DNA from: Parcubacteria group bacterium
GTDB taxonomy: Bacteria; Patescibacteriota; Minisyncoccia; Phycocordibacterales; GCA-002724975
Length of the DNA stretch: 64,000 nucleotides
Assembly (NCBI GenBank): GCA_002724975.1
Contig: PBQF01000039.1
Coordinates: forward strand, 1,152 to 65,151
Direction: 5' to 3'
This document shows, piece after piece, positions 10,242 to 34,832 of this stretch (positions are counted from its first letter, which is position 1; every line of letters starts with the position of its first letter). The notes under the pieces were generated by a model. That model was given only the letters and a program-made list of their open reading frames with translations, had not been told where the DNA came from and made no database searches. Both the position numbers and the translations under genes were made by a program.

Positions 10242-10313
10242 GAACTGAGATTATTAAGTCCTTTCATTAAAATTAAAGAACTGAGATTATTAAGTCCTTT
10301 CATTAAAATTAAA
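10242..10313. repeat. perfect 36-bp x 2 tandem direct repeat (gaactgagattattaagtcctttcattaaaattaaa)
   Basis: Two identical adjacent copies at 10242-10277 and 10278-10313, AT-rich, abutting the terminator of GC-rich cassette 1. Confidence 0.9.
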
Positions 10314-10338
10314 AAAGGGGCTACATCGCTGTAGCCCC
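10311..10338 (-). terminator. intrinsic terminator of cassette 1 (GGGGCTACA-tcgc-TGTAGCCCC + T6 on minus strand)
   Basis: Perfect 9-bp stem, 4-nt loop, followed on the minus strand by TTTTTT. Confidence 0.8.
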
Positions 10339-10406
10339 TCGGGTCGAACGACTGGATTCTTGTTCTCCGTCCGGCAGTTAAGCGGGACGAAATTACTCCA
10401 GATCGT

Positions 10407-10679
10407 CTACCCGTCCATGCCCGCCTGAGCCTCCATCTGCTCCCGGTGGGCATGCTGTTCCCGCTCCACGCGAGCCTTCATCTTGGTGCAGAACTCGCCA
10501 CAGGCGGTTCTCACCATTCCCAGGAGCATCAGCCTGGCTTCCGTTGTGTCAGCCGGACCCATGTCCTTGGTCAGCTCGCCGAGCTCCCTGGACAACCCTC
10601 CCAGCTTTTCGGAGACCGACTTCGTGATCGCCGCCCGGATGAGCCGTTCGTGGATGTGTTGCGGGTGGTGGTCTGCCAT
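10407..10679 (-). CDS. hypothetical small protein (90 aa), GC-rich foreign-composition cassette 1
   Basis: ATG at 10677-10679 is preceded by AGGAGG (10686-10691). GC3-rich codons (MADHHPQHIHERLIRAAITK...). The ORF-track upstream extension is not supported. Confidence 0.55.
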   Translation of the reverse strand: MADHHPQHIHERLIRAAITKSVSEKLGGLSRELGELTKDMGPADTTEARLMLLGMVRTACGEFCTKMKARVEREQHAHREQMEAQAGMDG

Positions 10680-10726
10680 AGTAGAACCTCCTTGAATGTA
10701 GACTAGCTTATTCCAGCCTACGCCCA

Positions 10727-10755
10727 CATTATATATCAAACTGCTGGAAAAGTCA
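10727..10755 (-). promoter_or_regulatory. sigma70-like promoter of cassette 1 (TTGACT-17-TATAAT)
   Basis: Minus-strand -35 at 10750-10755 and -10 at 10727-10732 with a 17-bp spacer, about 48 nt upstream of the ATG. Confidence 0.6.
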
Positions 10756-10771
10756 ATAGCAACTAAAGAAG

Positions 10772-11347
10772 TCAGTTAGTCTTAGCTTTCCACCATTCCT
10801 TAGCAATTACTTCCAACTCTTTCAGATAGCCATTTTTACCCTTCCTGTAAGCAGGATAGTCATTTGGGTGTTGCTCGTTTAGTTTTATTTTTAAATCTTC
10901 ATATTCTTTAGCCTTCTCTGGGTGTTCTTTTAGATAGCTTGTTACTTCAATAAAATGTCTTGCTTCTTCTGACCCCTCAAAACAGACGTGAATATTTTGA
11001 GTTTTTTGGTCATTGTCTTCAGACTTCCAAAATGTAGTAGTTCCCTCTTGGATATAGTTATCTTGATACTCATATCCAAGTCCAACCATTTTCTCTTTTT
11101 CCTCAACTAAATCTTGAACATCAGGAACTATCAATAAGATATCCACTATTGGCTTGGCTTTAATTTCTGGAATTGCTGTAGAGCCGACATGAACTATTTT
11201 CATCGCTTTACCTCTAAAAACTTCTTCCAAAGTCTTTTTGATTTCCTCAAATTTATCATTCCAGTCCGTAGTATAGCTAACCAAAGAATATGGACGCTTC
11301 TTTTTCTTGTGTTCAGTTATCTCGTCAAAAAAATGTTCCTCTTTCAT
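10772..11347 (-). CDS. GrpB family (UPF0157) nucleotidyltransferase-fold protein
   Basis: HVGSTAIPEIKAKPIVDILLIV motif typical of GrpB, 191 aa. Confidence 0.7.
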   Translation of the reverse strand: MKEEHFFDEITEHKKKKRPYSLVSYTTDWNDKFEEIKKTLEEVFRGKAMKIVHVGSTAIPEIKAKPIVDILLIVPDVQDLVEEKEKMVGLGYEYQDNYIQEGTTTFWKSEDNDQKTQNIHVCFEGSEEARHFIEVTSYLKEHPEKAKEYEDLKIKLNEQHPNDYPAYRKGKNGYLKELEVIAKEWWKAKTN

Positions 11348-11838
11348 ATTAAATCTTTCTCCATGAGAAGGGTGTCTGTATATTTACCATTATCCCTTTT
11401 AATATCATTCTCAAATTTCTCTAAGAGCTTGTATCCATTCTTTTCAGCAAATTTAACTGCTGTTACATTATCTGCAATCACATAAAGTCTAACCTTTTCG
11501 GCACCTCTGGACTTTGCCCATTCTTCTCTAGCTTTCACCAATTCCTTGGCCATACCTTTTCCACGATATTCAGACAAAACACCTAGCTTATGCATTACTG
11601 GTATTTCAGGGAATTTATCATAGAAATTAATACGCCCCATACCAACAAAATTATTATCATCAATAGCAATAAAAGTCTTTCCGTCTTTTTTCTCCAACCT
11701 ATTAATCCAATAATCCCCATCTTTCACAGACATTTCTTCATATGTGTCTACAAAGGCTTGCGGGTCTTCTCTTAATAGAGTTAGATACAAATCACGAACT
11801 TTCTCCCAATCTTTGACTATCGCTTCTCTAATTTCCAT
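11344..11838 (-). CDS. GNAT family N-acetyltransferase
   Basis: 164 aa with an acetyl-CoA binding motif region (LGVLSEYRGKGMAKELV); overlaps the GrpB gene by 4 nt. Confidence 0.75.
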   Translation of the reverse strand: MEIREAIVKDWEKVRDLYLTLLREDPQAFVDTYEEMSVKDGDYWINRLEKKDGKTFIAIDDNNFVGMGRINFYDKFPEIPVMHKLGVLSEYRGKGMAKELVKAREEWAKSRGAEKVRLYVIADNVTAVKFAEKNGYKLLEKFENDIKRDNGKYTDTLLMEKDLI

Positions 11839-11944
11839 ACCAAAATCCTACCACAGTTCAAAATCCCTAAAACCCTTACACTTTTAGTGATTTTAGATGC
11901 TCACTATCTCCAACCCACAATGCTCGCACAATCGTCCTAATATG

Positions 11945-12019
11945 CGCGGGTGATGGGATTTGAACCCACGACCTTCCCCGTGACAGGGGGACACTCTCAC
12001 CAGGCTGAGCTACACCCGC
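11945..12019 (-). tRNA. tRNA-Asp (anticodon GTC)
   Basis: GCGGGTGTAGCTCAGCCTGGTGAGAGTGTCCCCCTGTCACGGGGAAGGTCGTGGGTTCAAATCCCATCACCCGCG on the minus strand; anticodon loop CTGTCAC. Confidence 0.85.
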
Positions 12020-33192: not shown

Positions 33193-33194
33193 AT

Positions 33195-33638
33195 TTAGAA
33201 TGGAATATCTTCTGGTTTAATATCTTCCTCTGGATACTCAATTGTATCAAGATTTTCCTTTTGAGGTGTTTGGTCTTCGGCTTCTTTTGGTGCTGGAGTA
33301 GCTCCCTTATCTCTTTTTGGACCAAATTGAACCCTGTCAGCAACAATTTCGGTCATATATTTTTTAACTCCATCATTTCCTTCCCAACTCCTGGTCTGAA
33401 TTCTCCCCTCAACCAAAGCACTTGAGCCTTTCTTTAAATATTGGGCAACATTTTCCGCCTGCCTACCAAAAACAACAATATTATGATAATCAGTACTATC
33501 TTGTTTGTTGCCTTCTTTGTCCTTCCAAACTCTATTAGTAGCCAATGAAAAAGTTGTCACTGGAACACCGGAAGGCAGAGATCTTAACTCTGGATCTCTA
33601 GTTAAGTTTCCAATAATGATTGCTTTGTTTAAATACAT
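33195..33638 (-). CDS. ssb: single-stranded DNA-binding protein
   Basis: OB-fold N-terminus (MYLNKAIIIGNLTRDPELR) and acidic C-terminal tail ...DIPF. Confidence 0.9.
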   Translation of the reverse strand: MYLNKAIIIGNLTRDPELRSLPSGVPVTTFSLATNRVWKDKEGNKQDSTDYHNIVVFGRQAENVAQYLKKGSSALVEGRIQTRSWEGNDGVKKYMTEIVADRVQFGPKRDKGATPAPKEAEDQTPQKENLDTIEYPEEDIKPEDIPF

Positions 33639-33643
33639 AATTG

Positions 33644-34144
33644 TTATTCAACTACTAATTCATCAATGGCTTTGTCAACTTGAACTTCTGAAATCGGCTC
33701 TTTTTCCTTTGAAGATTCTTTAGATTTCTCTTTAGGTAATGAGATACTTGGCACCATACTCGGTTTTCGAAAAATCATTTTACTTTCTCTGACCGATTTA
33801 ACAAGCAAAAATCTCAAAATATTTTCCATTCTCCCCAACTCCGTCTTCATTTTAGAAACTGAACCAGGATTAGCTTCAAACTTTATCCATCCGAAATAAG
33901 CAGTATCAAAAACTTTTTTTTCGTTACCAATAACTTTACTCATTTCGTAGGCAAGTTTTATAGACTTAGGAGCTCCCTCCTCACCAATAAAAAGACCTCC
34001 ATTCTTCTCAATAACAGATTTTATATTTGAAACTTCGCCCACTAAATTTTCTTCAGCAATAATGGGAAGAAGATGAAAACCGAGCTCGTAAACCCCCAAC
34101 TCGTCCCCCACCGATAATTCATTATTTTTTACTCCTTCAGCCAT
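33644..34144 (-). CDS. rpsF: 30S ribosomal protein S6 (with C-terminal charged extension)
   Basis: ATG at 34142-34144 (MAEGVKNNELSVGDELGVYELGFHLLPII); the track start at 34189 is a TTG inside the upstream terminator. Confidence 0.75.
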   Translation of the reverse strand: MAEGVKNNELSVGDELGVYELGFHLLPIIAEENLVGEVSNIKSVIEKNGGLFIGEEGAPKSIKLAYEMSKVIGNEKKVFDTAYFGWIKFEANPGSVSKMKTELGRMENILRFLLVKSVRESKMIFRKPSMVPSISLPKEKSKESSKEKEPISEVQVDKAIDELVVE

Positions 34145-34180
34145 GAAGGACAGACTATCATGTAAATACAGCCTTTTCAA

Positions 34181-34231
34181 GAAAAACAAAACTGCCTAGG
34201 GGTCTTTCGTTTTTGATTAACCCCTGGGCAG
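34181..34231 (-). terminator. intrinsic terminator of cassette 5 (CTGCCCAGGGG / CCCCTAGGCAG stem, 17-nt loop, TTTTGTTTTTC)
   Basis: 10/11-bp stem at 34192-34202 and 34221-34231 with a T-tract on the minus strand. Confidence 0.65.
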
Positions 34232-34249
34232 AAATCAACTTAGTTCTTC

Positions 34250-34723
34250 CTAGATTCTTCTTTGCCTCTGGTAGCACATGGGACAGATGGACTTGCCATC
34301 TTTTGTGCGCGTGGCCACAGACTTGTCCCTCCTGCACAAAGAGCAAGGCTCGTGTGTAGATTTGTCATGGTAGCGGGCTCTCTGGTAGCACATGGGACAG
34401 ATGGACTTGCCATCTTTTGTGCGCGCGGCCACAGACTTGTCCCTCCTGCACAAAGAGCAAGGCTCGTGTGTAGATTTGTCATGGTAGCGGGCTCGCTTAT
34501 AGCACACGGGACAGATGGACTTGCCATCTTTTGTGCGCGTGGCCACAGACTTGACCTCTTCGCACAAAGAGCAAGGCTCGTGTGTAGATTTGTCATGGTT
34601 GCGGGCTTGCATATAGCACGCACGACAAATTAGTTGACCCATCTTACGATTTTGGGCAACTCCTTTCTTTCTTCTACCACAAACACCGCAACGCTGCTGC
34701 TGCCAGTGCCAATTACGTTTCAT
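34250..34723 (-). CDS. tandem zinc-ribbon repeat protein (157 aa; 4 x about 37-aa CxxC...CxxC units), GC-rich cassette 5
   Basis: ATG at 34723 is preceded by GGGAGGAAGG. Repeats of HDKSTHEPCSLCRRDKSVA.RTKDGKSICPMCYQRARY. The underlying 111-bp DNA repeats are about 97% identical. Confidence 0.6.
   Translation of the reverse strand: MKRNWHWQQQRCGVCGRRKKGVAQNRKMGQLICRACYMQARNHDKSTHEPCSLCEEVKSVATRTKDGKSICPVCYKRARYHDKSTHEPCSLCRRDKSVAARTKDGKSICPMCYQRARYHDKSTHEPCSLCRRDKSVATRTKDGKSICPMCYQRQRRI
34262..34640. repeat. 111-bp tandem DNA repeat array (about 3.5 copies) within the zinc-ribbon gene
   Basis: Units begin at 34262, 34373 and 34484 with 2-6 substitutions per copy; they generate spurious ORFs on both strands. 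Confidence 0.9.
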
Positions 34724-34803
34724 TAGGTCGCCTTCCTCCCTTCTGGTTTAAAATAATGAAAAATAAAAAACATGAGTGCCCTGCGAGAGAAGTGTCTTGC
34801 GAG

Positions 34804-34832
34804 AGACTAGCACAGACATTACATATTGTCAA
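34804..34832 (-). promoter_or_regulatory. sigma70-like promoter of cassette 5 (TTGACA-17-TAGTCT)
   Basis: -35 at 34827-34832 overlaps the TatD stop codon; -10 at 34804-34809; about 80-nt leader. Confidence 0.5.

Follow-up and report, generated by a model that had tools for sequence, protein, structure and literature searches.

Small GC-rich gene units of restricted distribution in a low-GC Parcubacteria genome

Bacteria of the candidate phyla radiation (CPR), or Patescibacteria, have tiny and streamlined genomes with many genes of no known function, and the way in which they gain genes is poorly understood. This work deals with a stretch of 64,000 nucleotides from contig PBQF01000039.1 (assembly GCA_002724975.1), referred to here as the window, and with five short segments on its minus strand, named c1 to c5, that are richer in GC than the DNA around them. 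The window belongs to a marine Parcubacteria/Paceibacterota lineage of metagenome-assembled genomes (exact-match protein records include MBO05888.1, MDP6119566.1 and HJN62814.1), has an overall GC content of 38.5%, and carries six tRNAs and a 23S/5S rRNA pair. The five segments are spread over 25 kb and each forms a unit of 0.4-0.65 kb, with one or two small open reading frames (ORFs) behind a Shine-Dalgarno (SD) sequence. The genes that flank them encode GrpB, tRNAs, RmuC, a VTT-domain protein, TatD and the product of rpsF; tRNA genes adjoin three of the five units (c1, c2 and c3). A preliminary description, made by reading the DNA alone, considered them to be self-contained transcription units similar to the morons of bacteriophages. 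The features of these units, including a conserved element in the 3' untranslated region (UTR) of c1 and c2, are as follows.

10728-10756, minus strand: predicted promoter of c1, TTGACT-17-TATAAT, 11 of 12 consensus matches; homologous from the -10 box onwards to a groundwater contig (L178) that carries a c1 homologue
10407-10679, minus strand: ORF of c1, 90 residues, beginning MADHHPQH; SD AAGGAGG at 10687-10693
10350-10399, minus strand: conserved 3'UTR element of c1, composed of GGAGUAAUU, a 7+2-bp hairpin and AGAACAAGAAUCC
10311-10340, minus strand: intrinsic terminator of c1, 11-bp stem, covarying with the one in L178, and then a T-tract
12678-12706, minus strand: predicted promoter of c2, TTGACA-17-TATAAT, 12 of 12 consensus matches
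12330-12602, minus strand: ORF of c2, an orphan of 90 residues with a GTG start; SD AGGAGG at 12609-12614
12214-12268, minus strand: c2 copy of the c1-type 3'UTR element, the second-best match of R1, a covariance model of that element
12162-12192, minus strand: terminator of c2, 14-bp stem and then a T-tract
13988-14045, minus strand: promoter region of c3, either TTGACA-16-TAACTT (13989-14016) or TTGAAA-18-AATAAT (14016-14045)
13718-13969, minus strand: ORF of c3, an orphan of 83 residues from the GTG at 13969; SD GGAGGT at 13976-13981
13718-13987, minus strand: longer option for the ORF of c3, 89 residues from the TTG at 13987
13645-13695, minus strand: terminator of c3, arms 13657-13666 and 13686-13695 around a long loop, then a T-tract
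21371-21399, minus strand: putative promoter of c4, TTGATT-17-TCTAAT, 9 of 12 consensus matches, below the reporting level of the promoter scan
21122-21340, minus strand: ORF c4A, a peptide of 68-72 residues with a single transmembrane (TM) segment
20890-21153, minus strand: ORF c4B, 74 residues from the ATG at 21114, or 87 residues from 21153
20837-20860, minus strand: terminator of c4, found by the scan
34804-34832, minus strand: putative promoter of c5, TTGACA-17-TAGTCT, with a weak -10 box, below the reporting level of the scan
34250-34723, minus strand: ORF of c5, 157 residues with four CxxC...CxxC zinc-ribbon units; SD GGGAGGAAGG at 34731-34740
34182-34232, minus strand: terminator of c5, a long-loop hairpin and then TTTTGTTTTT, read from the sequence

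The layout proposed in the preliminary description was recovered in part. Strong SD sequences are found at the correct spacing ahead of the ORFs, and each unit indeed combines an SD with one or two small ORFs that are GC-rich at the third codon position (GC3). A near-consensus promoter, which had been attributed to every unit, is present in c1 and c2 but not in c3, c4 and c5. Stem-loop terminators with a T-tract were returned by the scan for c1, c2 and c4; in c3 and c5 the terminator, read by eye, is a hairpin with a long loop and a T-tract behind it. In c3, c4 and c5 the stop codon of the preceding gene touches or runs into the -35 hexamer. The TAA of rmuC (14017-14019) abuts the TTGACA of c3 (14011-14016) with no gap at all, where one nucleotide had been reported; the stop codon of a 55-residue ORF lies 1 nt from the -35 box of c4; and the TGA of the TatD gene (34829-34831) does lie inside the TTGACA of c5 (34827-34832), as had been noticed.

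Regarding base composition, GC3 in 26 long host ORFs is 0.308 +/- 0.039, with 0.38 as the highest value, and the ORFs of the five units, with values from 0.49 to 0.82, are 4.7-13 standard deviations over the host mean. The impression of five GC-rich islands in low-GC DNA is thus borne out by windowed GC (0.49-0.65 in windows of 100-400 nt) as well as by GC3, and these ORFs are compositional outliers. The c1 ORF has a GC content of 0.63 (0.65/0.43/0.82 at the first, second and third codon positions), that of c2 0.51 (0.57/0.32/0.64) and that of c3 0.49 (0.56/0.42/0.49); GC3 is 0.60 in c4A, 0.51 in c4B and 0.59 in c5. The 3'UTRs of c1-c3 are likewise GC-rich (0.53-0.55), and the promoter and 5'UTR parts of the units, at 0.40-0.44, are not. 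The bias is also seen in the proteins: compared with 38 host proteins, the content of Gly, Ala, Arg and Pro (GARP) has z values of +0.6 to +3.5 and that of Phe, Tyr, Met, Ile, Asn and Lys (FYMINK) of -0.7 to -2.9. The host small genes (AbrB-like, glutaredoxin, ribosomal proteins) lack this GC-richness, and the remaining GC-rich stretches of the window are tRNAs, the 23S/5S rRNA, SecG and two large low-complexity proteins. The latter, encoded at 18540-20507 and 22528-26202, are Thr/Ser/Gly/Pro-rich proteins of 655 and 1224 residues with a GC excess at codon positions 1 and 2 and a GC3 of 0.26-0.29; they are compositional islands because of their amino-acid content and not because of a foreign origin. 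It has been reported that prokaryotic orphan genes normally match the GC content of their genome and that orphans of viral origin are GC-poorer (PMC11293555); therefore, the GC-richer direction of the bias described here is unusual.

Since the composition switches abruptly at five places, it was considered that the GC-rich segments could be an assembly or binning chimera, in which reads from another organism had been joined to a Parcubacteria contig. This explanation, also raised in the preliminary description, can practically be dismissed. The c1-c3 region, including its junctions, is 99.4-99.9% identical in six contigs from different samples (ENA, JGI and Logan); the interval from TatD through c5 to rpsF is identical in GCA_024712145.1 except for one 114-bp repeat unit; the c4A and c4B proteins are found on 10-29 contigs from independent sources, and the proteins of the five units as a whole on up to 52 contigs (Tara, JGI, ENA, NCBI and Logan). 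The overlap of host stop codons with -35 boxes of the units also argues against a chimera. Given their 99.4-99.9% identity, the sibling contigs are of no use for finding empty sites. In two siblings (L175 and L176) the identity to the window is higher than 99.7% down to position 7373, where the alignment ends and different genes follow; from this, a strain-variable region begins at tRNA-Gln (7373-7444).

The c1 ORF is a genuine protein gene. Its family consists of six clusters among 5.8e9 proteins, the alignment of the homologues contains 30 invariant residues, and dN/dS (the ratio of nonsynonymous to synonymous divergence, Nei-Gojobori) is 0.1-0.37. The AlphaFold2 (AF2) model is a confident two-helix hairpin, with a predicted local distance difference test (pLDDT) score of 87, for which Foldseek gave no match in the PDB at E below 4. 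The surrounding DNA was examined for five of the six clusters, and in all five c1 is a GC-rich island (GC 0.54-0.63, GC3 0.65-0.82) in a contig of 40-46% GC with CPR-type housekeeping neighbours. The adjacent genes differ in all five: GrpB and tRNA-Thr in the window, RuvC and Obg in L081, an aminoacyl-tRNA synthetase in L085, and other small ORFs in L178 and L179. When c1 is compared with the groundwater contig L178, homology begins at the -10 box and continues until about 10 nt beyond the T-tract of the terminator, with an identity of roughly 83% (an estimate from the alignment) and with covariation in the terminator stem. The similarity ends abruptly on both sides of the unit, the flanks are unrelated, and the rest of L178 bears no resemblance to the window. 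Likewise, L081 and L082-L084 share an identical c1 unit with different DNA immediately past the terminator. For c1, the unit of homology is therefore the whole transcription unit.

The c1 homologues have reached, or nearly reached, saturation at synonymous sites, with a synonymous divergence (dS) of 0.6-3. The preliminary description had listed horizontal acquisition from a high-GC donor as one possibility; given that a GC3 of 0.65-0.82 has been kept at dS 0.6-3, a single recent unameliorated import cannot explain c1. Two possibilities remain for its GC content: either a GC-rich reservoir that has escaped sampling keeps supplying copies, or some force holds GC up. The persistence of a high GC3 near saturation makes c1 a clean natural test of non-mutational forces such as biased gene conversion or selection on RNA. 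Biased gene conversion fits the clustering of single-nucleotide polymorphisms (SNPs) in c1; among siblings that are about 99.9% identical, six SNPs lie within 221 nt (10489-10709), versus four in approximately 15 kb of flanking DNA. These siblings show four haplotypes at two site groups, and the protein haplotypes P0001, P0003, P0007 and P0008 fail the four-gamete test. In terms of a bias from AT to GC, four of the changes go one way and two the other, too few for a conclusion. All six polymorphisms are transitions between A and G on the coding strand (none of the six is between C and T), and the three that lie inside the ORF are all nonsynonymous. Selection on RNA fits the folding of the UTRs and codons 55-72, where synonymous sites are conserved and the region forms a 13-bp hairpin; convincing covariation over the c1 coding region was not found (covariation term -0.16).

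A different origin of the bias would be a recent transfer of the units, still unameliorated, from outside the CPR, the donor being a high-GC organism (for example an actinobacterial or some other host) or the phages of that organism. CPR bacteria are episymbionts and are thought to take up host DNA, and a donor of this kind would account for the GC-rich codon and amino-acid composition as well as for its extension into the 3'UTRs. Nevertheless, searches of 5.8e9 clusters and of 1.8e9 representatives gave no homologue with high-GC surroundings, and neither three scans of IMG/VR nor tblastn against INPHARED and PLSDB gave a match to any unit. Relatives of c1, c4B and c5 were obtained in Patescibacteria or low-GC CPR-type contigs, and none were obtained for c2 and c3. 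As every traceable relative is in Patescibacteria, and considering also that all five inspected c1 homologues are in contigs of 40-46% GC and retain an undiminished GC3 at dS 0.6-3, a high-GC donor outside the CPR, which the preliminary description had named among the possible explanations, is unsupported and appears very unlikely.

Another aspect of c1 is a 50-nt block located right after the stop codon in all its homologues, with a mean column identity of 88%; this 3' element is conserved more strongly than the coding region of c1. All 60 of its 60 pair cells are standard, compensatory changes occur at two pairs, and shifting the pairing register lowers the pairing to 55% or less. The covariance model R1, built from five c1 copies and roughly calibrated, was used to scan the window. 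The c1 element scores 77 bits, and the next match is the 3'UTR of c2 with 22.1 bits (E 0.0015); it is full length, with 7 of 7 stem pairs canonical and both conserved single-stranded blocks present. The exact 12-mer AGAACAAGAAYC is found in the window only in the c1 and c2 elements. From the R1 match and the 12-mer, it follows that two units with unrelated ORFs share a 3' module; the products had been described as apparently unrelated to each other, and at the level of the 3'UTR the units are not completely independent. In 2.27 Mb of other Patescibacteria loci, R1 gave no full-length match of at least 16 bits. The 3'UTRs fold better than shuffled sequences (z -5 and -7), and the AGUA/GAA internal-loop arrangement of the element presumably recalls a loop-E/sarcin-ricin-type module, which we take as a lead only. 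Apart from BjrC68, which matched over the c1 terminator below its threshold (19.9 bits versus 39), Rfam had no match in the units, whether at the gathering threshold or with the limit relaxed to E<=1. We infer that the 3' element acts in post-transcriptional control, either as a binding site for protein or RNA or as the body of a small RNA (sRNA) derived from the 3'UTR. To our knowledge, there is almost no characterised post-transcriptional regulation in Patescibacteria, and this element is a candidate new RNA motif.

Downstream of the c1 unit, at 10242-10313, there is a perfect 36-nt tandem duplication that lies wholly beyond the terminator and does not flank c1; it is one copy shorter in the siblings L172 and L174. 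Each copy has a weak promoter-like site on the plus strand (9 of 12 matches) aimed antisense into the 3' end of c1.

The coding status of the other units was addressed with a test of heterogeneity among codon positions, for which eleven 270-nt pieces of 23S rRNA served as the control (p=0.10-0.99). Codon periodicity is detected in c1 (p=0.0002), c2 (p=0.0002), c5 (p=0.0016) and c4A (p=0.04). On the grounds of this periodicity, protein conservation, in-frame variants, similarities and the lack of a match in Rfam, c1, c2, c5 and c4A are treated as coding, and c3 and c4B as probably coding. Regarding c2, only its own 90% cluster was found, with no other relative among 5.8e9 cluster representatives, and its variants P0014 and P0015 are in-frame indels of 3 nt. 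The 3'UTR of c2 (12160-12329) shows an unexpected 3-nt periodicity (p=0.005), and a 102-residue ORF in another frame (12146-12454) starts within the c2 ORF and extends across the UTR as far as the terminator; this ORF is probably a chance product of GC-rich DNA. A full HMMER search with c3 among 1.8e9 representatives gave itself and one weak match; residues 4-27 resemble a propeller-type repeat of P0070, a protein of 548 residues (E 8.5e-6 library-wide). From the sequence, c4B is apparently translationally coupled to c4A, and it has a weak relative in the Giovannonibacteria locus L012 (43% identity over 42 residues, E 0.005). The c5 ORF contains a tandem repeat of 114 bp at 34266-34607 (3 copies, 95% matches). 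The four zinc-ribbon repeats previously described are present in the window, and in GCA_024712145.1 (L181) one unit is missing in frame, which leaves three; this difference is either a copy-number polymorphism or a collapse of short reads. The record of GCA_024712145.1 has no called gene at c5. A relative of c5 with 38% identity occurs in the Patescibacteria locus L060 (44.5% GC), and the tandem zinc-ribbon protein probably binds nucleic acid. Searches of Pfam, NCBIfam, PADLOC and PDB sequences gave no match above a curated cut-off for any protein of the five units; c5 has only generic zinc-finger matches, for instance to the N-terminal finger of Cas12f2 (28 bits versus a cut-off of 450), and in PHROGs weak zinc-finger matches were obtained for c5 only.

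These results bear on the alternative that some or all of the segments are genes for structured non-coding RNA (ncRNA), whose ORFs arose by chance from the scarcity of stop codons in GC-rich DNA. GC-rich islands in AT-rich genomes are usually structured RNA, every segment has ORFs on both strands, c3 and c4B are devoid of codon periodicity, the predicted folding is strong, and the units adjoin tRNA genes; moreover, at the position equivalent to that of c3, two other loci carry an RNase P RNA gene. However, the strong 3-nt periodicity of c1, c2 and c5 is not seen in the 23S pieces, c1 is conserved at the protein level with dN/dS below 0.4, the indels of c2 and c5 are in frame, SDs are strong and correctly spaced before the ORFs, c3 and c4B resemble other proteins, and Rfam yielded no match at the gathering threshold or E<=1 beyond the one already mentioned. 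RNA genes are therefore quite an unlikely explanation. The RNase P RNA genes in question (L166, 10880-11393, and L169, 2800-3259; Rfam 102-114 bits) lie on the strand opposite to the VTT gene, just downstream of it. Next to them comes a short unit, conserved in both loci, that consists of a promoter, a hairpin and a terminator and is possibly a small RNA missed by annotation. Rfam did not detect RNase P RNA in the window, where tRNA-Met and then c3 occupy the corresponding position. A likeness of c3 itself to RNase P, suggested by eye from a CR-I motif, was rejected, as the 3' strand of P4 is absent and no covariance-model match was obtained. In locus L041 (11080-11380), a GC-rich segment of structured appearance lies between rmuC and the gene for ribosomal protein L21; this segment, a possible leader or ncRNA, has no match in Rfam at the gathering threshold.

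In agreement with the preliminary description, no integrase, recombinase or transposase was found among the ORFs of the window, and no att or flanking direct repeats were detected; the repeat search detected only the terminator hairpins as inverted repeats at the units. Empty sites were sought through scans of GTDB genomes and JGI metagenomes anchored on RmuC, in which the relatives among the matches listed have at most 70% identity, none of them being of intermediate distance; these scans also supplied 165 loci that served as controls. The nearest locus among the matches listed for the rmuC side, L167/L168, has a VTT protein that is 76% identical, and its interval between rmuC and VTT contains rmuC, a terminator, an inverted tRNA-Met and an AT-rich spacer, with c3 absent.

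The main rival explanation is that these are native small genes, inherited vertically, whose GC content is kept high by selection at the RNA level, as in structured monocistronic mRNAs or dual-function RNAs; their orphan status would then result from fast protein evolution and sparse sampling of relatives. Several of the results described fit well here: the high GC3 of c1 at or near synonymous saturation, the synonymous conservation of codons 55-72 with their 13-bp hairpin, the folding of the 3'UTRs, the conservation of the 3' element, and the large distance to the nearest non-identical relative. On the other hand, the amino-acid composition is shifted towards GC-rich codons as well, the host small genes are not GC-rich, the neighbours of c1 differ in every lineage and its homology ends at the unit borders, c3 is absent at the L167 junction, and covariation over the c1 coding region is negligible. 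Overall, this explanation is rather improbable, although it has more in its favour than the other rivals.

The best explanation, to which a probability of about one half is given, is that c1 to c5 are accessory minigenes internal to Patescibacteria that are exchanged as whole transcription units. According to this proposal, they would be lineage-restricted accessory genes, each laid out in an intergenic gap as its own unit of promoter, SD, ORF or ORFs and terminator, and drawn from a pool of genes whose traceable members all lie within Patescibacteria. At least c1 would have been exchanged or relocated as a complete unit from promoter to terminator, and the route would presumably be recombination following DNA uptake and not a recombinase encoded by the element. 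The GC-rich codon and amino-acid composition shows that the units evolve outside the AT-biased regime of the host, and the GC-richness of c1 would be actively maintained instead of being the fading trace of a recent import; GC-biased gene conversion through frequent recombination, selection on mRNA structure, or both, could be the cause. Of these points, the base composition, the layout, the soundness of the assembly, the narrow distribution, the coding nature of c1, c2 and c5, the homology of c1 over its entire unit and the 3' element common to c1 and c2 are demonstrated; the way in which the units are transferred, the origin of their GC-richness, their expression and their function are inferred. 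The predicted products are small proteins: a two-helix hairpin (c1), an orphan (c2), a protein with a propeller-blade-like N-terminus (c3), a membrane peptide and its partner (c4A and c4B) and a zinc-ribbon protein (c5).

A number of observations weigh against the exchange of such accessory minigenes. For c3, c4 and c5, the match of the promoter to the consensus is weak and none of the three passed the scan; the -10 boxes first proposed for c3 (TAACTT) and c5 (TAGTCT) agree with TATAAT at 3 of 6 positions, and the alternative c3 promoter, TTGAAA-18-AATAAT, scores 10 of 12. Terminal inverted repeats, target-site duplications and att or other flanking direct repeats are missing, and the sole empty site examined, that of c3 in L167/L168, is also rearranged, with its tRNA-Met inverted. 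Beyond the 99%-identical strains the next relative is distant, so c2 and c3 might be fast-evolving native genes with unsampled orthologues. The periodicity of c3 (p=0.27) and c4B (p=0.34) is not significant, their coding status is derived from weak similarities, and the AF2 model of c3, made from a single sequence, is uninformative (pLDDT 49). The relatives of c5 (L060) and c4B (L012) are not GC outliers, and for these two units a simple transfer from a mid-GC Patescibacterium would suffice. The E value of 0.0015 for the c2 element comes from a roughly calibrated model of five sequences. Finally, the cluster of SNPs in c1 is partly an ascertainment effect, which concerns three of the six, since the search that led to the sibling contigs started from a variant c1 protein.

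The units can be compared with several known systems. The architecture of morons, as defined for phages HK97 and HK022 (PMC3594210), is shared in that a small gene or pair with its own predicted promoter and terminator (clear from the sequence in c1 and c2) is wedged between other genes, has a composition unlike its flanks and may represent added DNA with respect to a relative (c3 versus the rearranged interval of L167), and in that, for c1, the unit of homology is the transcription unit. The moron reading of the preliminary description therefore holds for architecture and accessory nature but not for the phage context, since the units are carried by the chromosome of a CPR cell, with housekeeping and tRNA genes around them, and have no phage or plasmid homologue in IMG/VR, INPHARED or PLSDB; they are, in addition, GC-richer than their host, and the c1 family keeps its composition over a long divergence. 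Genomic islands associated with tRNA genes also show compositional bias and orphan content, and c1-c3 are near tRNAs, with a strain-variable region at tRNA-Gln; nevertheless, units of 0.4-0.65 kb with no integrase, att repeats or duplicated tRNA 3' end are different from such islands. In integron cassettes, unrelated small ORFs are followed by a common structured 3' element, as in c1 and c2, but the units described here have their own predicted promoters and terminators, are scattered and not arrayed, and are without IntI and attI. Furthermore, the R''/R' cores of attC (RYYYAAC/GTTRRRY) are absent from the 3' element as far as it is readable, and lacking the integron core sites it is interpreted as an RNA element and not as a recombination site. 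A conserved hairpin, the single-stranded AGAACAAGAAYC and a terminator with a U-tail at the mRNA 3' end recall the sRNAs and cis-elements derived from 3'UTRs; the c1/c2 element differs in that it is not in Rfam, and it was seen in the five inspected c1-family lineages and in c2. For c4A alone there is a likeness to type I toxin-antitoxin systems, as it encodes a small single-TM peptide on what is predicted to be a GC-rich, structured, stand-alone transcript; it differs in its length of 68-72 residues and in its apparent coupling to a soluble partner, and a gene for an antisense RNA was not seen, although no search aimed at one was made. A derivation from a miniature inverted-repeat transposable element or insertion sequence was rejected, given that there are no terminal inverted repeats and no target-site duplication.

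GC-rich orphan minigenes are clearly not peculiar to this window. Comparable units were found in four loci of low-GC Patescibacteria that had originally been retrieved for other purposes:

L071, 1711-1983, minus strand: minigene unit, GC3 0.59 versus 0.24 in the host
L069, 6603-6968, minus strand: minigene unit, GC3 0.57 versus 0.40 in the host
L166, about 9830-10200, plus strand: minigene unit
L107, 7359-7607, plus strand: minigene unit, GC3 0.72 versus 0.39 in the host

These four units have a TTGACA-type promoter, a strong SD, a terminator and a GC3 excess, and their ORFs, of 56-121 residues, have no family match. A VxxxxGExxxKM pattern, noticed by eye, suggested that c1, c2 and the minigene of L071 could be distant homologues; neither hhalign nor BLASTP gave a significant result, and the idea was dropped. 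A crude scan of 0.8 Mb gave approximately 21 candidate units, in 12 of 42 loci besides the window, a number that is an upper bound because the scan is not specific. Nine of the ten candidate ORFs tested lack a Pfam match at E<=0.001, none belongs to an Rfam family, and several adjoin tRNA genes. Full-text searches of the literature did not find a description of such GC-rich minigenes. It is tentatively suggested, as a proposal that is open to considerable doubt, that low-GC Patescibacteria harbour an undescribed class of autonomous orphan minigenes of 0.4-0.6 kb, which would move as whole units without a recombinase of their own, with their GC content actively maintained by biased gene conversion or RNA selection, and some of which, namely c2 and the c1 family, would be linked by the 3'UTR motif GGAGUAAUU-hairpin-AGAACAAGAAYC as a common regulatory or recognition signal. 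If this were true, the gene flux of Patescibacteria would include very small self-expressing orphan genes, and a signature GC-richer than the host would be a practical handle on the accessory or effector-like small proteins of these episymbionts.

Two additional observations concern the rest of the window. The 23S and 5S genes are located at 54936-58174 and a 16S gene was not found anywhere in the 64 kb, so the rRNA genes are unlinked; the 23S gene is without a large insertion, as the full bacterial model matched over 3,000 nt. Directly downstream of c4, at 20573-20830, there is a gene of host composition for an AbrB/MazE-like protein of 58 residues (Pfam E 0.0025, below the cut-off), with the palindrome CCCCAAGCTTGGGG and a TATAAT box upstream of it.

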